A DNA stretch of 64,000 nucleotides, taken from NCBI GenBank assembly GCA_029255845.1, contig JAJVLF010000013.1, forward strand, positions 1,469 to 65,468, read 5' to 3'. The notes beneath the pieces were generated by a model, which was given only the letters and a program-made list of their open reading frames with translations, ran no database searches and had not been told where the DNA came from. Position 1 is the first letter of the stretch, and the number at the start of each line of letters is the position of its first letter. This DNA is from Campylobacterota bacterium. GTDB lineage: Bacteria > Campylobacterota > Campylobacteria > Campylobacterales > JAJVLF01. Shown here piece after piece: positions 2,737 through 60,872 of this stretch. Both the position numbers and the translations under genes were made by a program.

Positions 2737-2755
2737 TACTTGCTTAAGACAAGTA
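2737..2755. promoter_or_regulatory. Candidate MarR operator site 2 (TACTTG-N7-CAAGTA)
   Basis: TACTTGCTTAAGACAAGTA equals the reverse complement of site 1 with 1 mismatch. It overlaps the 5' end of the marR ORF as drawn by the track. Confidence 0.5.
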
Positions 2756-3207
2756 TAATATTAAAATTGTATAATTTCATTATGCAAAATATACAACTAG
2801 GAAAATCATTGGGGCATTTATTTCATTTTATTAATTTGAATATGAGAAAGAAGCTAGATAAGGACATAAGGGAGCTTGGTCTTACATCTTCACATCAATT
2901 TGGTGTGCTATTATTGCTAAGTAAAAGCAATCTATCGCAAAAAGAAATTTCAGATTCTACCTTAGCAGATGAGCCTTCTACTACGAGAATGCTAGAAAGA
3001 ATGATAAAAAAAGAGCTTATTTCTAAGAAAAAATCAGATAAAGATAAAAGAAAACAAATAGTTTTTATAACGAATAAAGGCAAAGAGCTTTTGAAAAAAG
3101 CAATGCCTTTGGCTAATGAGGGCAATAAAAAAATTGAGAATATATTAAGTAGTGATGAATTAGAAAATCTTTTTACTATTTTAAATAAAATAAAAGATGG
3201 TATTTAA
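2740..3207 (+). CDS. MarR-family transcriptional regulator
   Basis: Winged-HTH region LSQKEISDSTLADEPSTTRMLERMIKKELISKKKSDKDKRKQIVFITNKG. The track start is TTG; ATG at 2782 (MQNIQLG) is the more likely start. The stop TAA lies in the TTAA abutting MITE 3208-3368. Confidence 0.85.
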   Translation: MLKTSIILKLYNFIMQNIQLGKSLGHLFHFINLNMRKKLDKDIRELGLTSSHQFGVLLLLSKSNLSQKEISDSTLADEPSTTRMLERMIKKELISKKKSDKDKRKQIVFITNKGKELLKKAMPLANEGNKKIENILSSDELENLFTILNKIKDGI

Positions 3208-3368
3208 GGGAACCTCTATTAATTCAAAATAAATAGCTAATATTATATTTTAGCCTTATAGCAATTTTTATAAAATAGATGTAGCTACGGCTACACCGTA
3301 TTTTATAAAAATCACTCTAAAACTAAAATCTAACATTATCTAAATTATTTGAATTAATAGAGGTTCTC
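3208..3368 (-). mobile_element. Foldback MITE family A, complete 161-bp copy
   Basis: GGGAACCTCTATTAATTCAAA...TTTGAATTAATAGAGGTTCTC. Arms pair over about 70 nt around a TGTAGC-TACG-GCTACA centre. Flanked by TTAA (3204-3207) and TTAA (3369-3372). Confidence 0.9.
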
Positions 3369-6726: not shown

Positions 6727-7545
6727 TTGAAAGAGGTTTTAATTACGGGGTGTTCTAGTGGTATAGGCTTGCATTGTGCTATGTTTTTAAAAGAGCATAA
6801 TTTTAGAGTTTTTGCTACGGCTAGAAAAAATGAAGATGTCTTAATGCTTCAAGAAAAAGGATTAGAAGCTTTTCAATTAGATTTGCAAAATAAAGATAGC
6901 ATTCATAATGCTTTAAATGAAGTTTTAAAATTAACTAATGGTAAATTATATGCATTATTTAATAATGGAGCTTATGGTCAAGCAGGAGCTTTAGAGGATA
7001 TTTCTACTGAAGTTTTAAAAAAAGAATTTGAAACAAATGTATTTGGGTGGCATGAGCTTCAAAATTTAGTTTTGCCTATTATGAGAAAACAAGGATATGG
7101 CAAGATAGTCCAAAATAGCTCTGTGCTAGGATTTGTAAGCTTAAAATACAGAGGTGCATATAATGCTAGTAAGTATGCTATTGAGGGTCTTAGTGATACT
7201 TTAAGGCTTGAGCTTCTTGGAAGTAATATTTTTATCTCTCTTATAGAGCCTGGTCCTATTCGTAGTCATTTTAGAAAAAATGCTTATAAATCTTTTTTAG
7301 ATAATGTAGATTATGAAAATTCATTTCATAAAGATAATTATCAAAATATGATAAAAAGATTTGAAAGAAAAGGAAAAGACTTTTTTGAATTAAAAGAGAT
7401 TGCAGTTTCAAAAAAAGTATTAAAAATACTTAATGCCAAAAAACCACGAGCAAGATATTATGTAACATTTCCTACTTATTTATTTGGTTTTTTAAAGAGA
7501 ATACTAAGCACTTTTTGGATGGATAAAATACTTAGGTTTTTTTAG
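6727..7545 (+). CDS. Short-chain dehydrogenase/reductase (SDR)
   Basis: TGCSSGIG cofactor motif and YNASK catalytic motif. TTG start directly after the ilvD stop. Confidence 0.85.
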   Translation: MKEVLITGCSSGIGLHCAMFLKEHNFRVFATARKNEDVLMLQEKGLEAFQLDLQNKDSIHNALNEVLKLTNGKLYALFNNGAYGQAGALEDISTEVLKKEFETNVFGWHELQNLVLPIMRKQGYGKIVQNSSVLGFVSLKYRGAYNASKYAIEGLSDTLRLELLGSNIFISLIEPGPIRSHFRKNAYKSFLDNVDYENSFHKDNYQNMIKRFERKGKDFFELKEIAVSKKVLKILNAKKPRARYYVTFPTYLFGFLKRILSTFWMDKILRFF

Positions 7546-7558
7546 TTTAGAGGTTCCC
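7546..7558. repeat. Solo terminal stub of MITE family A/B (TTTAGAGGTTCCC + TTAA)
   Basis: 13-nt match to the element right terminus, between the SDR stop (7545) and the prs stop (7559-7561, inside the TTAA). Confidence 0.5.
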
Positions 7559-8488
7559 TTAAACATGAAATAAACCATGAACACTTTTGTTTTCATTAAT
7601 GCTAAGTATTACATTTGCGAAAATTTCAGAAGAAGAAAGAACTTTTATTTTAGGGCTTTTCTTAATAGGGATTGTATCAAGAACTATAATTTCATCTAAA
7701 TCACTATTTTCTAAATCTTTATATGCATTGCCACTAAATACAGGGTGCACAGCAAAAACTTGGACAGATTTGGCTCCTTTAGCTTTTAAGGCACTAGCAG
7801 CTTTTACTATGGTTCCTCCTGTGTCAATCATATCATCTATTAGGATTACTTCTTTGTTGTCTACATCGCCTATGATATTCATAACCTCGCTTGAATTTGC
7901 TTTTTCTCTTCTTTTGTCTATAATTGCAATGTCTAAATTTAGATGTTTGGCGACTGATCTTGCTCTAGCTACTCCACCTACATCGGGACTTGCTATGATT
8001 GTGTTTTCTAATCCCATATCTTTTATGTAATTTAAAAATATGATAGTTCCATATAAATTATCAACGGGAATATTAAAAAACCCTTGTATTTGAGCAGCAT
8101 GCAAATCCATAGTAACCACTCTAGTTGCACCTGCTACTTGTATCATATCTGCTACTAATTTGGCAGTAATGGGAACTCTTGGGAGAACTTTTCTATCTTG
8201 TCTGGCATATCCAAAATATGGTATTACTGCGGTTATGCTTTTAGCATTGCTTCTTTTTAGGCAATCACACATTATTAAAAGTTGCATTAGATGTTTATTT
8301 ACAGGATTATAGGTAGATTGTATAATAAATACATCTTGTCCTCTCACACTTTCATTGACTTGGACATTAGTTTCACCATCGCTAAATTCACTAATTGTAA
8401 CATCTACAAGGCTCATATCTAAATGCTTTGCCATTTTTTCGGCAAATTCGTCATTAGAACCACAAGAGATAATTTTAAAGTTTGACAT
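7559..8488 (-). CDS. prs: Ribose-phosphate pyrophosphokinase
   Basis: 309 aa. Motifs DLHAAQIQGFF and DDMIDTGGT (PRPP-binding loop). Confidence 0.95.
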   Translation of the reverse strand: MSNFKIISCGSNDEFAEKMAKHLDMSLVDVTISEFSDGETNVQVNESVRGQDVFIIQSTYNPVNKHLMQLLIMCDCLKRSNAKSITAVIPYFGYARQDRKVLPRVPITAKLVADMIQVAGATRVVTMDLHAAQIQGFFNIPVDNLYGTIIFLNYIKDMGLENTIIASPDVGGVARARSVAKHLNLDIAIIDKRREKANSSEVMNIIGDVDNKEVILIDDMIDTGGTIVKAASALKAKGAKSVQVFAVHPVFSGNAYKDLENSDLDEIIVLDTIPIKKSPKIKVLSSSEIFANVILSINENKSVHGLFHV

Positions 8489-8540: not shown

Positions 8541-8600
8541 GGAAACCTCTAAAAGTATAAAATAAAGCAGATAATAATCTATTGATAAAAAACACTTCTA
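8541..8600. repeat. Degenerate left-arm remnant of MITE family B
   Basis: GGAAACCTCTAAAAGTATAAAATAAAGCAGATAATAAT resembles GGGAACCTCTAAAAATACAAAATAAATAGATAATAT. Preceded by TTTA. No matching right arm. Confidence 0.45.
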
Positions 8601-8692: not shown

Positions 8693-9191
8693 CACTTCTG
8701 CACAGATTGTATAGCTTTAGTTAAAAAAATAATTCCCGCTCTAATAATAAGTAAAAATTTTATAACCTCTAAAATACCATATATAAAATGATAATAACTT
8801 TCAGGCAAAGGCTCATTTGATATAACCATATCAGCTCTCTCCATAAGAATAGGTAAAAGCCAGATATTTTGTATGATAAAAATGCTTATTGGTAATAGAT
8901 ATAAAATCCATATTTTTCTATTAGGTTTTATAAAAAACAATGAAGTAATAATTAAGGAAGATATTATCCATTCCATAATGCTTAAGGCTTTGAATATTAT
9001 CTTGCCTATTCCTAGCCCTAATGCTGTCGTTATATTAGGAGCTTGAAATTTTAATGGGGCTTCCATAAAAGAAATGCTAAAAATTGAGCCTACCCATATA
9101 AAGAGACCAATGCACTTCTAATTTGCATTGGTCTCATAAAGGTTAAACTTATGATTAATACTTGTAAATATACTTGTTTTTTATCTGACAT
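8692..9191 (-). pseudogene. DUF4149-like small membrane protein gene split by a 33-bp mini-MITE
   Basis: Removing 9103-9135 plus one ATAAA copy (38 bp) joins MSDKKQVYLQVLIISLTF (ATG 9189-9191) in frame to IWVGSIFSISFMEAPLKF... With the insert the 5' frame stops after about 33 codons. The track ORF 8692-9066 is the 3' part. Confidence 0.65.
9103..9135. mobile_element. MITE family C, 33-bp minimal derivative
   Basis: GAGACCAATGCACTTCTAATTTGCATTGGTCTC (12-bp stem). Flanked by direct ATAAA (9098-9102 and 9136-9140). Confidence 0.85.
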
Positions 9192-9192
9192 T

Positions 9193-9564
9193 TTATCTCC
9201 TAATTAACACACTTTGTATTTTATTGTTTTCACATTTATTTATACTAAGTCTTGCTACTGATTTCTCTATTGCTTCTAGTTCGTGAAGAATATTTTCTTT
9301 AAGATATATAATATCTCCACTTTTTAATATAAATACTTCTTTTTTGACTGTAAATTTTATTTCTCCTTGTATGCACATAAGAGTGATGGGGTATTTGCTT
9401 TTATGCTCTTTCATAATTTGCTTTTTATTAAAAGCTATGCGAACTTCTTTAGTAAGCTCATCATCCATCATTACATTAATGGACACATTTTTATCTGAAA
9501 ATTGGACATCTTTTAAAAATGATATTACTTGCATATTTATTCTTTTTTTTAATTTAGAGACCAA
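9193..9564 (-). CDS. Cupin-domain protein
   Basis: Cupin-like core (GEIKFTV...GDIIYLKENILHELEA). The track TTG start lies inside MITE 9557-9589; ATG at 9532-9534 (MQVISFLKD) is the likely start. Confidence 0.7.
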   Translation of the reverse strand: MVSKLKKRINMQVISFLKDVQFSDKNVSINVMMDDELTKEVRIAFNKKQIMKEHKSKYPITLMCIQGEIKFTVKKEVFILKSGDIIYLKENILHELEAIEKSVARLSINKCENNKIQSVLIRR

Positions 9565-9589
9565 TGCACTTCTAATTTACATTGGTCTC
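9557..9589. mobile_element. MITE family C, 33-bp minimal derivative
   Basis: GAGACCAATGCACTTCTAATTTACATTGGTCTC. Flanked by direct ATTTA (9552-9556 and 9590-9594). 1 nt different from 9103-9135. Confidence 0.85.
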
Positions 9590-16266: not shown

Positions 16267-16427
16267 GGGAACCTCTATTAATTCAAATAATTTAGATAAT
16301 GTTAGATTTTCGTCTTATAGTGATTTTTATAAAATGCGGTATAGCCGTAGCTATATCCATTTTATAAAAATTGCTATAAGGCTAAAATATAATATTATCT
16401 ATTTATTTTGAATTAATAGAGGTTCCC
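16267..16427 (+). mobile_element. Foldback MITE family A, complete 161-bp copy
   Basis: GGGAACCTCTATTAATTCAAATAATTTAG...TTTGAATTAATAGAGGTTCCC. Flanked by TTAA (16263-16266) and TTAA (16428-16431). Lies 3' of glyQ. Confidence 0.9.
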
Positions 16428-17487: not shown

Positions 17488-17648
17488 GGGAACCTCTAAA
17501 AATACAAAATAAATAGATAATATCATATTTTCACTTTATGATAATTTAAAAATATTAGATGTAGCTACGGCTACACCGTAATATTTTAAAATCACCATAA
17601 AGCAAAAATCTGACACTATCTAAATTATTTGTATTTTTAGAGGTTCCC
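17488..17648 (-). mobile_element. Foldback MITE family B (sub-family of A), complete 161-bp copy
   Basis: GGGAACCTCTAAAAATACAAA...TTTGTATTTTTAGAGGTTCCC. Flanked by TTAA (17484-17487 and 17649-17652). Followed by a GGGAACGG stub. Confidence 0.9.
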
Positions 17649-17743: not shown

Positions 17744-18496
17744 ATGAAAACAATATTATTTGTTATAGTTGGGATGTTATTAGTAGGATGTGGTAGCTCT
17801 GGAAACAATAATGGTTCTGGAAATACTGGTGGTGAAGCTTCAATAAAAAAGGACAAAGAGCAAGCAACAGACAATACTAATAAAACCTCTTATGAGACAG
17901 TTCAATATAAAGCTACGATAAAAACTATATGGACAGCAGAAAACTTTGCTACAAATTTTCCAAGTGGGAGACATTTTTCTCAAGTCATAGGGATGACACA
18001 TAATGAAAATATCAAATTATTTAATGTCGGCTCTAAAGCAACTAATGGTATTAAAGAAATGGCAGAAACAGGAAAAACTACCATAACAACAAATGAAATT
18101 AAAAACTATGTTTCTAATAAAAATGCAGGACTTGTCATAAAAGGCTCTTCACTTTCTTCAAGTGTCGATACCGTAAGTTTTAATTTTAATATTAGCTCTA
18201 ATCATAGCTTAATATCTATAGTAAGTATGATAGCTCCTAGCCCAGATTGGTTTATAGGGATAAATTCTTTAAATTTGATGGAAGATGGGGAATGGATAAA
18301 AGAAAAAATAATAGATTTAAAAGTCTATGATTCTGGAACTGATAACGGAAATATATTTACTTCATCAAATGAAGCAACAACCCCACAAGAAAACATTACT
18401 AGATTAAGCACTTCTTCTAGTGATACTGATTTTCAAGATGGAAAACATAGAAGCTCTAATAACTTTAGGGAACCTCTATTAATTCAAATAATTTAG
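17744..18496 (+). CDS. Spondin_N-domain lipoprotein with MITE-derived C-terminus
   Basis: Lipobox LLVGCGSS. Spondin_N-like pattern (IWTAENFATNFPSGRHFSQVIGMTHN ... SPDWFIGI). The last 9 codons (REPLLIQII) and the stop are encoded by MITE 18468-18628. Confidence 0.7.
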   Translation: MKTILFVIVGMLLVGCGSSGNNNGSGNTGGEASIKKDKEQATDNTNKTSYETVQYKATIKTIWTAENFATNFPSGRHFSQVIGMTHNENIKLFNVGSKATNGIKEMAETGKTTITTNEIKNYVSNKNAGLVIKGSSLSSSVDTVSFNFNISSNHSLISIVSMIAPSPDWFIGINSLNLMEDGEWIKEKIIDLKVYDSGTDNGNIFTSSNEATTPQENITRLSTSSSDTDFQDGKHRSSNNFREPLLIQII

Positions 18497-18628
18497 ATAA
18501 TGTTAGATTTTAGTTTTAGAGTGATTTTTAGAAAATACGGTGTAGCCGTAGCTACATCTATTTTATAAAAATTGCTATAAGGCTAAAATATAATATTAGC
18601 TATTTATTTTGAATTAATAGAGGTTCCC
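18468..18628 (+). mobile_element. Foldback MITE family A, complete 161-bp copy
   Basis: Flanked by direct TTTA (18464-18467 and 18629-18632). Inserted 3 codons before the original stop of the Spondin_N gene. Confidence 0.9.
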
Positions 18629-18732
18629 TTTAACCACATATAAAAACATCTATGTTAGTGGCTCAATTTTTAATAAATAAATTTATCATTAGACTTCTTG
18701 CAAAACCCATCAAATTGGATATATGAGTTATA

Positions 18733-18893
18733 GGGAACCTCTATTAATGCAAAATAAATAGCTAATATTATATTTTAGCCTTATAGCAATTTTTATAAAA
18801 TAGATGTAGCTACGGCTACACCGTATTTTATAAAAATCACTCTAAGACTAAAATCTAACATTATCTAAATTATTTGAATTAATAGAGGTTCCC
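18733..18893 (-). mobile_element. Foldback MITE family A, complete 161-bp copy
   Basis: Inverted relative to 18468-18628 and 104 bp away. The flanks TATA and TTTA are not identical. Confidence 0.85.
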
Positions 18894-19347
18894 TTTAATG
18901 ATAATTTATGCTTGGTGTCTATAAGAGTTTTTCTACTGTTAAATGGGAAAACAGTATGTTTGAGTAAGCTTTTTAGCTTTCCCTCTAAGAAGTCCCTCTC
19001 TAAAGTTAATTCACCTACTTTTTTAGCCATAGAGTCTTTATCTCTTTTTAGAACTTCTATTGTTTCTTTATATTCTCGGACTACTACACTTTTATCAAAT
19101 GCTAGGCTCATATTGTCTAAGAATTGTTTTTTCCAATCTCTTAGGCTTTTTGGTAATATTTCATACTTACTAGCTATCTCATTTAATGTTTGTTCACATT
19201 CTAAAACTTCTAATACTAGTTTAGATTTGAAATCTGCTGTGTACTTTTTTCTTTTTGTGCTCATTGTTTTTGTCTCCATTTTTTATGTTTTATTTTATCA
19301 TTTTGGAATAAGGAAATTCTTATTTTTGGTTACAATTATGAGGGACA
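18894..19347 (-). mobile_element. IS3-family insertion sequence remnant (left end + orfA only)
   Basis: OrfA HTH region MSTKRKKYTADFKSKLVLEVLECEQTLNEIASKYEILPKSLRDWKKQF...ERDFLEGKL. The minus-strand terminus begins TGTCCCTCATAATTG at 19347. Homology stops at MITE 18893. No orfB. Confidence 0.75.
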
Positions 19348-19352
19348 TTATA

Positions 19353-19432
19353 GGCTATACCGCATTTTATAAAAATCACTATAAGACGAAAATCTAACAT
19401 TATCTAAATTATTTGGATTAATAGAGGTTCCC
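19353..19432 (-). mobile_element. Half copy of MITE family A (from the central loop to the right terminus)
   Basis: GGCTATACCGCATTTTATAAAAATCACT...TTTGGATTAATAGAGGTTCCC. Breaks in the central hairpin, 5 bp from the IS3 terminus. Confidence 0.8.
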
Positions 19433-19963: not shown

Positions 19964-20021
19964 GAGACCAATGCAAATTAGAATCACCCTATCTTATGCA
20001 CTTCTAATTTGCATTGGTCTC
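19964..20021 (-). mobile_element. MITE family C, 58-bp internal-deletion derivative
   Basis: Both termini plus TCACCCTATCTTATGCAC from the right interior. Direct TAAAA flanks (19959-19963 and 20022-20026). The SNF2 stop codon (20021-20023) spans its edge. Confidence 0.85.
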
Positions 20022-23000
20022 TAAAACAACAATTTCATCAATTCTTTCCCCGTAATTTTTTCACTAGAGTCCCCTTTATATATCCCCTCTTGTAAAGATA
20101 GTTTTTTCTTTTGTAATTCTAATATCTTCTCTTCTATACTATTTTCTACAATAAGCTTATAAACAAATACTGCCTTATTTTGTCCTATTCTATGAGCTCT
20201 ATCTGTAGCTTGATTTTCTACAGCAGGGTTCCACCATGGGTCGTAGTGGATGACTGTGTCGGCTTGGGTTAGGTTTAGTCCCACTCCTCCTGCTTTTAGG
20301 CTTATTAAGAATATTTGGACATCTCCATTGGTGAATTTATTAATTACCTCTTCTCTTTTTCTTGTTGAACCTGTTAGCTTTGTGTAGCTGATATTTTTAT
20401 TTATTAATTCTTTTTCTATTATTGATAGCATTGAAGTGAATTGTGAAAATACTAATATTTTTTTATCTTCTTGTAATAGCTCATCTATTAAATCTAAGAA
20501 TAATGCTAATTTAGCAGATTCATTGACTTTTTTTGCTTCAGATATTTTTACTAATTTAGGATCACAGCATACTTGTCTTAGCTTTAATAAGGCATCTAAT
20601 ATGGTTATATGAGATTTTGCTAAGCCTTTAGTTTTGACTATGTCTCTAACTTTCTTTTCCATAGTAATTCTTATGCTCTCATATAATTTTGCTTGTTTTT
20701 TATCAAATTGAGTGTATTTTATTATCTCTGATTTTGCTGGTAGCTCTAATAAGACATCTTCTTTTTTTCTTCTAATCATAAATGGCTTTATTTTAGCATT
20801 TAGCATTTCTTGTTTTTTAATATTGCCTTCTTTTTCTATTGGGTTTTGATATAACTCCTTAAATCCTTTTAAGCTTTTTAGAAATCCTGGCATTAAAAAG
20901 CTAAATATAGACCAAAGCTCTCCTAGGTGATTTTCGATAGGTGTGCCACTAAGAGCTAATTTATGTTCACTTTTAATAGTCTTAATAGATTGGGACATTT
21001 TAGTTTGTGGGTTTTTAATTTTCTGAGCTTCATCTAAAATAATATAACTAAATTTATGCTCATTAAATCTATCTATATCTCGCACTACCAAAGAATAAGA
21101 AGTAATAATTAAATCATTTTTATTAATTTTATCAAACTCTTTAAACCGTTCTAATCCCCCATATAAAGATAGAACTTTGAGTTTAGGAGTAAATTTAGCT
21201 ATTTCATTTTTCCAATTAGCCACCAAAGAAGTAGGCACTACAATTAAGCTAGGTTTTTTTAATAGCTTTTGCTCTTTTAATCGCAATAAATGTGCTAAAA
21301 CTTGGACTGTCTTACCTAGTCCCATATCATCTGCTAAAATACCAGAAAATCTAAACTCATATAAAAAATTAAGCCAATTAATTCCTTCTTTTTGATAATC
21401 TCTTAAAGTTAGTTGCAAATTCTTTGGAGGCTCTATTTTCTCAATTTTTTCAAAATCATTCAGTTTTTTAGAAAGCTCTAAAATCTCCTTAGAGCCTTTC
21501 CATACAATACTATCATCGATATTTCCTAAAAGATGAGACTCAAAAGAAGATACTCTTATTTCCCCACTATCGTTTTTATCATCATAAAGCTCAAAGATAA
21601 TATTTAAAATAGGCCTTAATGAGCTTGATTTAATCCTAGCAAAGTGATTAGGTTTAACCTCGACATTTACATACTCTTCTAATTCATCAAAATCATCATA
21701 CTCTTGTAAAAGATTACTAATTAATGGAGCTAAAGACACACTTTGACCTGCGAAATCTATATTAAAAGACAAAGAAAACCAATCATTACTATCTTCACTT
21801 TCAACAACCACAAGAGCATCATCTTCAAATGTTAAATTAAAACTATCATCAAAAATTACATCAAAACCATCTAGCTTTAATTTGTCCAAGCCATCTTCTA
21901 AAAACTTATGCCAAAAATCTAATTGTTTTTGTTTATTAGAAATATTGCCTAAATGAAAATATAAATATGTAGCTTCTTTAGCGGAACTAAAGCCTAAATC
22001 TTCTAGTTTATTTTTAGCTTTATTTTCAAATTCTAAATCTCTAATAATTTCAATTTGTTGATTATCTTCAAAAATAATAGTTTTATCATTTTGAGGGTAG
22101 TAATTACTAAGCACATTTTTATATACAAAATCTAATTGAATTATATTTCTATTCATTTTATTTGATAACATTAAAGACGGTATAGGCTTTTGTTTGATAC
22201 TTGAAACTTCAAATCCTAAAGGAGGAGATATATCAATAGCATCTAATTTTCCTAAAAGAGCTTGATACATTTTAGACATTTGATAAGTCTCTATTTCAGG
22301 TGTATTTGTGAGTTTGCGGAGCATGTCTTCATTAATATTACTATTTATTTTATGGACTTCCTTTTTCTTTGGATTGATGATAAATAATGGTTTTGTAAGC
22401 ACGATATGAGATGTTTTATCAATATCCATTTGTATTTGATATTTGTTTACTGTAGTAGATTTCCATGATAATTTAATATTTTGTAATTCTTGTGAATATG
22501 TAAGGGGGCTTTGATTATTTTTATAAAAAGCACGATTTGTTTCAAGTATAGCCATTAAGATATTAGCACCGAGCTTACCTTCTAATTTAATTTCATTAGC
22601 ATAACGAGCATAAACATATAGAGGGTTGCTGTAAGCAACTTTAAGCATATCAAGTATTTCTAAATCTTCTTCGTTTAATATATCACTATAAGAATTATGA
22701 TGTAATAATCTATCCATAGATACTTTCTTGCCGTGAGAGATTTCTCCATTTTGAAGAAAAGAAACTCTATAGCATTTGACATCACTATATGCATGGCTAT
22801 CTTTATTGTATAAGCGATAAATCATCATAGAATTACTTGATACATTTTTCACATTATCATTTTCAAATTCATTAATCCAAGAATCAAATGAGTTTTCATC
22901 ATATACAACCATAGCATTCTTAGAACTATTCGCATAAAGCAAACAAGAAGCTACAACATGCTTGCAATTATGCTTTATAGGACAGCTACAAACCCCAATA

Positions 23001-23212
23001 ATAATTACTCTATCATTAAATTGCACAATAGAAATATCTTGCTCATACATAAAGCTACCTTGCACATTACTTTTTATTTTCACACTAATATCCGAACCTT
23101 CTTCTATATCGAATATATCGATATTAGCACTATCATTATAATACCTAAGTCCTCTTGCGTAATAGTTTTTATTTTTAATTGCATTTTTAATCTGTGTATT
23201 ATTTAGGGTCAT
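20021..23212 (-). CDS. SWIM zinc-finger + SNF2-family helicase/ATPase
   Basis: 1063 aa. SWIM CSCPIKHNCKHV near the N-terminus. SNF2 motifs DDMGLGKT, DEAQKIKN and QATDRAHRIGQ. Confidence 0.9.
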   Translation of the reverse strand: MTLNNTQIKNAIKNKNYYARGLRYYNDSANIDIFDIEEGSDISVKIKSNVQGSFMYEQDISIVQFNDRVIIIGVCSCPIKHNCKHVVASCLLYANSSKNAMVVYDENSFDSWINEFENDNVKNVSSNSMMIYRLYNKDSHAYSDVKCYRVSFLQNGEISHGKKVSMDRLLHHNSYSDILNEEDLEILDMLKVAYSNPLYVYARYANEIKLEGKLGANILMAILETNRAFYKNNQSPLTYSQELQNIKLSWKSTTVNKYQIQMDIDKTSHIVLTKPLFIINPKKKEVHKINSNINEDMLRKLTNTPEIETYQMSKMYQALLGKLDAIDISPPLGFEVSSIKQKPIPSLMLSNKMNRNIIQLDFVYKNVLSNYYPQNDKTIIFEDNQQIEIIRDLEFENKAKNKLEDLGFSSAKEATYLYFHLGNISNKQKQLDFWHKFLEDGLDKLKLDGFDVIFDDSFNLTFEDDALVVVESEDSNDWFSLSFNIDFAGQSVSLAPLISNLLQEYDDFDELEEYVNVEVKPNHFARIKSSSLRPILNIIFELYDDKNDSGEIRVSSFESHLLGNIDDSIVWKGSKEILELSKKLNDFEKIEKIEPPKNLQLTLRDYQKEGINWLNFLYEFRFSGILADDMGLGKTVQVLAHLLRLKEQKLLKKPSLIVVPTSLVANWKNEIAKFTPKLKVLSLYGGLERFKEFDKINKNDLIITSYSLVVRDIDRFNEHKFSYIILDEAQKIKNPQTKMSQSIKTIKSEHKLALSGTPIENHLGELWSIFSFLMPGFLKSLKGFKELYQNPIEKEGNIKKQEMLNAKIKPFMIRRKKEDVLLELPAKSEIIKYTQFDKKQAKLYESIRITMEKKVRDIVKTKGLAKSHITILDALLKLRQVCCDPKLVKISEAKKVNESAKLALFLDLIDELLQEDKKILVFSQFTSMLSIIEKELINKNISYTKLTGSTRKREEVINKFTNGDVQIFLISLKAGGVGLNLTQADTVIHYDPWWNPAVENQATDRAHRIGQNKAVFVYKLIVENSIEEKILELQKKKLSLQEGIYKGDSSEKITGKELMKLLF

Positions 23213-23382: not shown

Positions 23383-23544
23383 GAGACCAATGCAAATTAG
23401 AACCACCTAATCTAGGGAGCTATAAGACATCATAAAGCAATTTTTTTGTTAAAAACATAGCTTTTGCTATGATTTGAACAAAAAAATCACTTTCTAATAT
23501 CTTCTATCACCCTATCTTAGGCACTTCTAATTTGCATTGGTCTC
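23383..23544 (-). mobile_element. MITE family C, full-length 162-bp copy
   Basis: GAGACCAATGCAAATTAGAA...TTCTAATTTGCATTGGTCTC. Direct TACTA flanks (23378-23382 and 23545-23549). 170 bp upstream of the SNF2 start. Confidence 0.9.
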
Positions 23545-23764: not shown

Positions 23765-23840
23765 AAATTTAGTTTTAGAGTTATATAATATCACTTTTAA
23801 TTCAATCCTAATTAAATTATTTGTATTATTAGAGGCTCCC
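23765..23840. repeat. Degenerate/rearranged remnant of MITE family A/B
   Basis: ...CTAATTAAATTATTTGTATTATTAGAGGCTCCC followed by TTAAG. Explains the N-terminal part of track ORF 23576-23905. Confidence 0.45.
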
Positions 23841-24057
23841 TTAAGAAAAAGAAAGTAAAATACCCACATTAGTAAAATTATCAAATCGGCTCTCATTAAA
23901 TACATAATTTAAGGGATTGGCTTTGGTGATTTAATAATAGATTTATTATTAATTAGAAATTTGTAGAATTATTTATTTTTTAGATGAATATAGTCATTAT
24001 TTATATAATATGATGGTTATTACAGTAGAGGTGTGCAAATAAAATACATCTCATCTT

Positions 24058-26652: not shown

Positions 26653-26981
26653 GGGAACCTCTAAAAATACAAAATAAATAGATAATATCATATTTTCACT
26701 TTATGAGACCAATGCAAATTAGAACCACCTAATCTAGGTAGCTACAAGACATCATAAAGCAATTATTTTGTTAAAAACATAGCTTTTGCTATGATTTGAA
26801 CAAAATAATCACTTCCTAATGCCTTCTATCGACCTATCTTAGGCACTTCTAATTTGCATTGGTCTCTTTATGATAATTTAAAAATATTAGGTGTAGATAC
26901 GGCTACACCGTAATATTTTAAAATCACCATAAAGCAAAAATCTGACACTATCTAAATTATTTGTATTTTTTAGAGGTTCCC
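26653..26981 (-). mobile_element. MITE family B copy carrying a nested family C MITE
   Basis: Direct TAAA flanks (26649-26652 and 26982-26985). Collinear with 17488-17648 except for the 162-bp insert plus a 5-bp duplication. Confidence 0.9.
26705..26866 (-). mobile_element. MITE family C, full-length copy nested in family B
   Basis: Direct TTTAT flanks (26700-26704 and 26867-26871). The uninterrupted target CACTTTATGATAATTT is present in copy 17488-17648. Confidence 0.9.
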
Positions 26982-39577: not shown

Positions 39578-39615
39578 TTTGGTTTTGTATTTTTTTAAAT
39601 CAAGGTCATACTTAT

Positions 39616-39652
39616 GGGAACATCTATTAATTTTGAATTAATAGATGTTCCC
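39616..39652. mobile_element. MITE family A, 37-bp minimal derivative (termini only)
   Basis: GGGAACATCTATTAATT-TTG-AATTAATAGATGTTCCC. Both arms carry the same C-to-A / G-to-T change relative to full copies. Confidence 0.7.
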
Positions 39653-39667
39653 TTCAATTTCTAAAAA

Positions 39668-60710: not shown

Positions 60711-60872
60711 GAGACCAATGCAAATTAGAACCACCTAATCTAGGGAGATACAAGACATCATAAAGCAATTATTTTGTTAAAAACATAGCTTTTGCTATGA
60801 TTTGAACAAAATAATCACTTTCTAATGCCTTCTATCACCCTATCTTATGCACTTCTAATTTGCATTGGTCTC
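60711..60872 (-). mobile_element. MITE family C, full-length 162-bp copy
   Basis: Direct AACTT flanks (60706-60710 and 60873-60877). Central CATAGC-TTTT-GCTATG hairpin. Confidence 0.9.

Follow-up and report, generated by a model that had tools for sequence, protein, structure and literature searches.

The window analysed here is a stretch of 64,000 nucleotides of contig JAJVLF010000013.1 from an uncultured member of the Campylobacterota, with a G+C content of 28%. It is crowded with short palindromic repeats: two unrelated MITE (miniature inverted-repeat transposable element) families are represented by at least 11 copies, full or partial, plus remnants. The two arms of these elements differ from each other in a strand-specific manner. 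One strand, designated S, is the better-folding, G:U-bearing strand; its complement carries A:C at the same sites. S is favoured in folding energy, its pairs covary, and the same pattern recurs in an independent family of other bacteria. These features point to selection as the cause. Modest preference is given to the reading that, in MITEs of both families, the hairpin of one strand has been kept under constraint and that the folded molecule was most likely a transcript.

The window elements are assigned to families A/B and C. A and B together form a single family, of which each is a sub-family; they are approximately 82% identical, with the same ends and the same asymmetries, and their shared ancestry had been correctly noted in the original prediction. 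That prediction treated C as a third sub-family, which does not hold, as C has other ends and 5-bp instead of 4-bp target duplications. Placement of C within A/B was rejected because their similarity does not exceed that of shuffled controls. With no detectable similarity between them, C and A/B are regarded as independent families.

Each left arm was set against the reverse-complemented right arm of its element in an ungapped comparison. Transitions between arms are found in family A (3208-3368) at arm positions 35 (A/G), 47 (C/T), 48 (C/T), 55 (C/T) and 56 (A/G), in family B (17488-17648) at 33, 35, 45, 46, 54 and 56, and in family C (60711-60872) at 22, 23, 45, 49, 56 and 57. Every one of these sites has A or C in one arm against G or T in the other, with the same polarity within each family. 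A score of 17 polarised sites out of 17 had been claimed; all of the sites are reproduced, and one unlisted difference of opposite polarity (G/A at arm position 2, private to copy 3208-3368) brings the score to 17 of 18. The base beside the central stem of family A, said to follow the same rule, is also G:U on S (columns 74/91). Columns with G:U common to at least two copies stand at 10:0 in A/B and 6:0 in C (chance p = 0.002 and p = 0.03, respectively, with the strand chosen post hoc).

Transversion mismatches are polarised as well, being G·A or G·G on S and C·U or C·C on the complement. In family A, arm positions 30, 39 and 52 are G·A (3:0 at family level). In family C, positions 21, 25, 29, 30, 38, 41 and 51 are G·A or G·G (6-7 sites), against one C·U at 69. 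Other mismatches are U·U or A·A, strand-symmetric in kind. S carries the kinds of mismatch tolerated best by a folded strand; the complement has A·C, C·U and C·C there. Four tandem wobbles are present (A 55/56, B 45/46, C 22/23, C 56/57), all of them 5'-UG/3'-GU, the preferred arrangement of tandem wobbles in RNA helices. S is enriched in G and T, with a GC skew of +0.10 to +0.25. Arm positions 22-26 of A/B (e.g. 16288-16292 with 16402-16406) form a symmetric 5-nt internal loop on S, composed of U·U, A·A, an isolated A:U left unpaired in predicted folds, U·U and U·U. This loop and the G·A at arm position 39 are unchanged in A, B and sub-family A' (type copy 16267-16427) while adjoining pairs covary. 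The conserved non-pairs of A/B may serve as a recognition feature.

Comparison of the folding energies of the two strands, proposed in the original prediction as a check, gives a strong difference. Folded as RNA, 16267-16427 reaches -86.2 kcal/mol on the + strand (z -18.5) and -69.0 kcal/mol on the - strand, both far below shuffled sequences. The + and - strands give -56.4 and -73.6 kcal/mol for the family A copy 3208-3368, -60.0 and -86.1 kcal/mol for the family B copy 17488-17648, and -64.8 and -89.1 kcal/mol for the family C copy 60711-60872. In the eight full copies one strand is more stable by 17-26 kcal/mol as RNA and by 6-11 kcal/mol with DNA parameters. Minimum-free-energy folds contain 5-7 G:U pairs on S and 0-1 on the other strand. 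For 16267-16427 and 18468-18628 S is the + strand, as had been predicted. Copy 16267-16427 also has the extra pairing-improving changes ascribed to it: compared with A, pairing is restored at positions 30, 48 and 52, and both partners have changed in a compensatory way at 70 and 74. In A/B the apex scores as terminator-like on both strands; on S it has a stem of 8 pairs with a U-rich run after it. No Rfam family is matched. Only sub-threshold matches to models of plant miRNA precursors (generic long hairpins) are obtained, and a known RNA family is rejected as the identity of the elements.

An alignment of copies, likewise suggested beforehand as a check, reveals covariation. Eight A/B sequences were aligned on S, and pairs were counted over the full hairpin (78 pairs). 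Cells are paired in 90.8% of cases on S against 83.7% for the same pairs on the complement, which has just two single-copy G:U cells. Double changes occur at 13 of the 78 pairs, against 7.0 ± 1.6 in shuffles (0 of 500 reach 13) and 1-2 with a slid partner. Transitions account for five of these (e.g. U:A to or from C:G at 38/126, A:U to or from G:C at 54/110, and 71/93 and 76/89 in A'); seven are A:U to or from U:A transversions. Column 49/115 is C:G, U:G or U:A across the sub-families, and G:U on S is the sole intermediate seen between Watson-Crick pairs (columns 48, 49 and 56). A double transition needs one mutation that is friendly and one that is unfriendly to the fold of S, so both types have occurred in these lineages; each intermediate that survives is nevertheless G:U on that strand, which a one-sided bias of mutation cannot by itself produce. 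The three C copies have 11 differing positions; four of them make up the compensatory pairs 35/128 and 61/102, and another three (45, 46 and 52) switch between Watson-Crick and G:U pairing. The covariation characteristic of structured RNA is present above shuffled and slid controls in A/B and in the 141-bp family described below. It would appear as well in a DNA palindrome kept by other means.

The pattern is replicated in a MITE family of 141 bp from metagenome-assembled genomes (MAGs) of Gallionellaceae/Nitrosomonadales, with A/B-type ends and an unrelated interior. Its 14 full copies, from several organisms (L042 5698-5838 and 13 other loci), are among the matches listed when species-representative genomes were scanned with the A/B end pattern GGGAACCTCTANNAATNCAAA. 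The consensus (RNAalifold) folds at -57.4 kcal/mol on one strand and -35.9 kcal/mol on the other. Double changes are found at 13 pairs, and the favoured strand has 60 G:U cells against 5 A:C. G:U is present in at least two sequences in 7 columns and A:C in none; singletons have 6 G:U and 5 A:C. In this family wobble reaches into the terminal repeat, which contains GGGAGCC at one end and GGGAACC at the other. A planctomycete family of 129 bp with the same ends gives a weak and ambiguous signal.

With the three families pooled, mismatches on S shared by at least two copies are 23:0 for G:U against A:C, and single-copy mismatches are 8:7. The contrast between shared and private changes is significant (Fisher p = 0.0005; joint binomial approximately 1e-6, with the strand chosen post hoc per family). 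Private transitions of A/B on S are G to A (position 2 of 3208-3368 and the centre of copy 1-94) and T to C, that is, opposite to a deamination bias on S. Transitions in both directions had been named as an outcome that would speak against the proposed constraint; they are found among single-copy changes and are absent from inherited ones. Young changes that are unpolarised, with only polarised ones inherited, form the pattern of purifying selection, which by these counts would act over time or at the copying step. A purely mutational account needs a bias of at least 7:1 for the 23:0 and at least 5:1 for the window alone. Selection on a single-stranded fold, as originally proposed, is supported by the energies, the covariation, the G:U-only intermediates and the 141-bp replicate.

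In anatomy the elements of both families have all the MITE features for which they were examined. Full copies are 161-162 bp in length; typical copies have stops in all six frames, no further than 10-16 codons in from either end. Each is a near end-to-end palindrome of 70-79 pairs; in A, B and C alike one arm matches the other over its first 20-21 nt, which form the terminal inverted repeats. Target duplications of A/B are 4 bp in five of six copies (TTAA in three, TTTA, TAAA); the sixth, 18733-18893, has imperfect TATA/TTTA. Those of family C are 5 bp in all three full copies (AACTT, TACTA, TTTAT) and in all three short derivatives. A filled and an empty site can be compared for C: copy 26705-26866 is nested in a B copy, and B copy 17488-17648 is intact at that point and represents the empty site. 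An empty site for A/B was not found, synteny with relatives breaking exactly at the element. L097 and L098, relatives whose GlyQ exceeds 90% identity, have DNA of only approximately 85% identity and contain one decayed 75-bp derivative or none. The derivative, at L097 11841-11915 near glyQ, is an internally deleted A/B element; synteny with the window stops where 16267-16427 starts.

Short derivatives are also present in the window. Two 33-bp derivatives of C have identical deletion end-points between ATGCA repeats, which may reflect either transposition of a 33-bp element or recurrent hairpin-mediated deletion. With internal sequence lost repeatedly in this way between short direct repeats, instability of long palindromes appears to be real here. 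In a 41-bp derivative of A the same C to A change is present in both arms. Plasmid records searched with A and with C gave no match, and scans of viral sequences gave unrelated matches or nothing. A metagenome scan with the A/B centre gave three matches, of which L094 lies in coding sequence of 58% G+C and was rejected as a chance match. Membership of the IS200/IS605-type group (REP/PATE), which lacks terminal inverted repeats and target duplications and has sub-terminal hairpins and a Y1 transposase, is not indicated: the elements have perfect 20-nt terminal inverted repeats and duplications of fixed length, and no Y1 transposase is present among the window open reading frames (ORFs) checked.

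The A/B end, GGGAACCTCTAWWAATNCAAA, also bounds a multi-copy insertion sequence (IS) of approximately 1.3 kb in a Methylococcales MAG. This IS encodes an IS5-family transposase of 369 aa (NF033581, 7e-90; DDE_Tnp_1 PF01609 and DUF772 PF05598), and its full-length form is flanked by a 4-bp target duplication, TTAT. The end pattern used for the scan is exact at one end of the Methylococcales IS; the other end is an imperfect repeat. Loci L005-L093 are among the matches listed for that scan; most of those listed are MITE-like elements of 100-180 bp with the same 21-nt ends and unrelated interiors. Among them the 21-nt end is nearly unchanged in MAGs of Planctomycetota, Gallionellaceae, Methylococcales, Synechococcus, Syntrophorhabdus, Alphaproteobacteria and Sulfurovum (e.g. 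L012 2557-2686, L028 371-499, L036 2890-3052). What this implies is an IS5 subgroup, conservative and very widely spread, from which MITEs appear to have arisen repeatedly. Most of the MITE families with A/B-type ends in other phyla are not end-to-end hairpins. Because of the identical 21-nt ends and the 4-bp target duplications, A/B are considered to be probable IS5-family-derived MITEs on which a transposase would act in trans. An IS5 transposase was sought within the 64-kb window by tblastn and is absent from it. Two small ORFs near short C derivatives were rejected as transposases; one encodes a cupin and the other is without match.

In the preferred reading, A/B would be moved by an IS5-family transposase in trans, and family C by another enzyme that makes 5-bp duplications. 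The ancestral lineages of the present copies would have been constrained to keep the hairpin of one particular strand, so that arm differences on that strand are limited to tolerated mismatches (G·U, G·A, G·G, U·U) and sub-families diverge by compensatory double changes via G:U. The product would be a stem-loop RNA of approximately 160 nt, its apex resembling a terminator, and would serve as a transcript end, a stabiliser or an RNase III target, as for other bacterial MITEs; the mismatches would also stop the DNA from being a perfect long palindrome. RNA is more likely, though unproven, as the folded molecule than single-stranded DNA because of the larger energy gap with RNA parameters, the RNA-type tandem wobbles, published precedent and the terminator-like apex of A/B. 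Several observations weigh against this reading. Only approximately 11 copies of the window's own families are usable for analysis. The energy asymmetry persists with DNA parameters, and G·T is the most tolerated mismatch in DNA as well. The loop C(UACG)G, of the UNCG type, is present on the opposite strand of A/B, as had been noted beforehand. A hairpin that starts at the first base of the element leaves no place within the element for a promoter of the whole fold. The A:U to U:A changes are odd for ordinary evolution of an RNA stem and could have their source in templated copying between arms. Orientation to neighbouring genes is mixed in the window, in agreement with the earlier description: S is sense to adjoining genes at 16267, 18468 and 23383, and antisense at 3208, 26653/26705, 60711 and 1-94. 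The consistent orientation to transcription typical of structured RNA is therefore absent from the window. In tandem gene contexts the 141-bp family has 4-5 sense copies against 1 antisense, too few to judge.

A single-stranded DNA hairpin, formed at the replication fork or during mobilisation, could be the constrained fold instead, with well-folding elements leaving more descendants; this is rather unlikely. Such an origin would fit the mixed orientation to genes, the asymmetry that remains with DNA parameters, and a polarity that lies in inherited variants (23:0) and not in single-copy ones (8:7), since the filter would then be on propagation and not on each resident copy. Integron attC sites and IS200/IS605 elements are known to use strand-specific DNA hairpins. 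The ends and 4-bp duplications of A/B are of the IS5-family DDE type, however, and to our knowledge IS5-type DDE transposons cut and paste duplex DNA without a single-strand step. The DNA energy difference is far smaller than the RNA one, and derivatives of 33, 41 and 58 bp lie between apparent target duplications without the long stem, so that the long fold may be dispensable for moving. In a variant that spans both molecules, the strand-specific hairpin of MITEs with IS5-type ends, and of family C, would be needed for propagation and not for a host function, in spite of ends typical of a transposon family that cuts and pastes duplex DNA, a folded single strand (DNA at the fork, or RNA) being recognised, protected or copied. 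It is suggested by the 0 of 23 A:C-type inherited variants in the three families against 7 A:C beside 8 G:U among single-copy ones, and is held to be improbable. If it were true, it would mean an unrecognised single-strand step in the life of MITEs derived from DDE transposons.

The fold may also have had no part in selection. Strand-biased mutation of a master copy (deamination of C and A on an exposed strand), combined with templated quasi-palindrome correction between arms, would give a favoured strand enriched in G and T (with the skew given above), and all wobble sites can be written as C to T or A to G on that strand. Templated arm copying also suits the many A:U to U:A double changes better than stepwise compensation does. 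The bias calculated above would, however, be required in each of three independent families, changes confined to one copy are unbiased, and private transitions of A/B run in the opposite direction. Deamination does not supply the transversions behind the G·A and G·G mismatches of that strand, and window copies occur in both orientations. Mutation without selection on the fold is thus considered quite unlikely. Least probable is a duplex-DNA signal in one arm only, such as a promoter facing outward or a site for a host protein. The asymmetric arm positions 35 and 39 turn TCTAAC into TATAAT in one A arm only, on the favoured strand (16385-16390 and the corresponding site of other A copies), approximately 36-41 nt from the element end, and the family B equivalent is TATGAT (17522-17527); read outward, this arm could be a candidate promoter. 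It covers two of approximately 13 polarised positions of A/B and none of C, and it leaves the double compensatory changes and the energy asymmetry unexplained. Promoter-like matches are not enriched, with 23 found against 21.3 expected in shuffled sequence.

Among known systems, the elements are similar to those of the Correia and ERIC types, and above all to bcr1, in their size, their hairpin form and the signs of a conserved structure. The IS5-derived MITEs of Acinetobacter (MITEAba12 type) are, like A/B, short, non-coding and dispersed, with terminal inverted repeats and 4-bp A+T-rich target duplications; in A/B the arms are complementary over the whole 161 bp and not at the ends only, and no cognate transposase is present in the window. 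Correia elements (NEMIS) of Neisseria are MITEs of approximately 100-155 bp whose long-hairpin transcripts are cut by RNase III, affecting expression of neighbouring genes (PMC10969869). They share the hairpin form that is predicted for the window elements. In Correia elements pairing is limited to ends of approximately 26 bp and the target duplication is TA; we know of no report of strand-polarised wobble in them. ERIC/IRU elements of Enterobacteriaceae are imperfect palindromes of approximately 127 bp that form a single long stem-loop (PMC2267715), and their effect on mRNA decay varies with the placement of the element in the transcript (PMC10969869). They have no sequence relationship to the window elements; ERIC is without a known transposase or clear target duplication, whereas for A/B the IS family is identified. 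The bcr1 elements of the Bacillus cereus group are approximately 155 bp in length, flanked by 5-bp direct repeats and transcribed, with an RNA-level structure kept by compensatory changes (PMC3184786). Family C closely resembles bcr1 in size and 5-bp duplications; it differs in host phylum and sequence, and transcription is demonstrated for bcr1 and putative for the window elements. Transcripts of bacterial MITEs form stable stem-loops, and MITEs have been proposed as Rho-independent terminators (PMC10969869). The apex of A/B, a G+C-richer stem followed by a U-rich run, is predicted to be terminator-like, as in SPRITE and other terminator-like MITEs; it differs in lying within a much longer stem.

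A literature search, in which older work was thinly covered, yielded no account of Campylobacterota MITEs or of strand-polarised mismatch spectra in bacterial MITEs. The elements add a clean new case to a kind that is already known and do not make up one of their own. Bacterial MITEs are usually viewed as passive remnants known by their duplex ends; here the sequence itself reveals the strand that matters. In two unrelated families of one genome, and in a third of another bacterial class, the positions of one strand that depart from Watson-Crick pairing are consistently of tolerated kinds. Counting G:U against A:C and G·A against C·U, at shared and at private sites, provides a cheap, annotation-free test of strand-specific structural constraint in repeats, and the polarity names the strand to be probed by RNA-seq or Northern blotting.

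Copies of family A are located at 1-94, 3208-3368, 18468-18628 and 18733-18893. Copy 1-94 is truncated at the beginning of the window, which leaves the 3' 94 nt of S (favoured strand +; blastn identity of 98.9% to a family A copy); a private G to A change within its central stem results in C·A on S. Copy 3208-3368 (161 bp, target duplication TTAA) has its favoured strand on -. Copy 18468-18628 (TTTA, favoured strand +) provides the stop codon of ORF 17744-18496, and copy 18733-18893 (TATA/TTTA, favoured strand -) stands head-to-head with it. Sub-family A' is represented by 16267-16427 (161 bp, TTAA, favoured strand +), 29 nt downstream of glyQ, and by a half copy at 19353-19432 on the - strand (5' 80 nt of the favoured strand). 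Family B is represented by 17488-17648 (161 bp, TTAA) and by 26653-26981 (TAAA), split by a family C copy, both with the favoured strand on -. Family C copies are 23383-23544 (162 bp, TACTA), 26705-26866 (inside the B copy, duplicating TTTAT at B positions 48-52) and 60711-60872 (162 bp, AACTT), all with the favoured strand on -. Internally deleted derivatives of C are found at 9103-9135 (33 bp, flanks ATAAA/ATAAA), 9557-9589 (33 bp, ATTTA/ATTTA) and 19964-20021 (58 bp, TAAAA/TAAAA). The 41-bp derivative of family A ends, at 39614-39654, is a perfect palindrome with GGGAACATCT... in both arms. Further short derivatives or solo ends are located at 7540-7560, 8541-8576 and 23813-23842.

Two window proteins agree with the host affiliation, NrdA through its match to the PRK08447 model and GlyQ through an identity of 72-77% to sequences of MAGs named Arcobacteraceae, Campylobacterota and Epsilonproteobacteria. 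Several genes adjoin the elements closely. The stop codon (3205-3207) of a MarR-family gene (2740-3207) lies within the TTAA duplication of copy 3208-3368. ORF 17744-18496, encoding a spondin-domain protein, runs for approximately 9 codons into copy 18468-18628 (18468-18496) and then stops. The head-to-head A copies form, at 18467-18894, an inverted repeat of 168 nt, 98% complementary, with a spacer of 92 nt. ORF 18848-19279 (143 aa) has an IS3-type transposase OrfA domain (HTH_Tnp_1, 1.2e-10) and adjoins this pair; its 3' end enters one copy, and the half copy lies just beyond. The neighbourhood 18467-19432 is a cluster of mobile-element debris, with ORF 18848-19279 a remnant of an IS3-type OrfA. 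A SNF2-family helicase of 1063 aa is encoded at 20021-23212, with partial, sub-cut-off matches to models of pilus-regulating Snf2, the SCO1167 family and ZorD (Zorya). The 58-bp derivative of C abuts the 3' end of this gene; on the other side, 171 nt upstream of the gene start, there is a full C copy.

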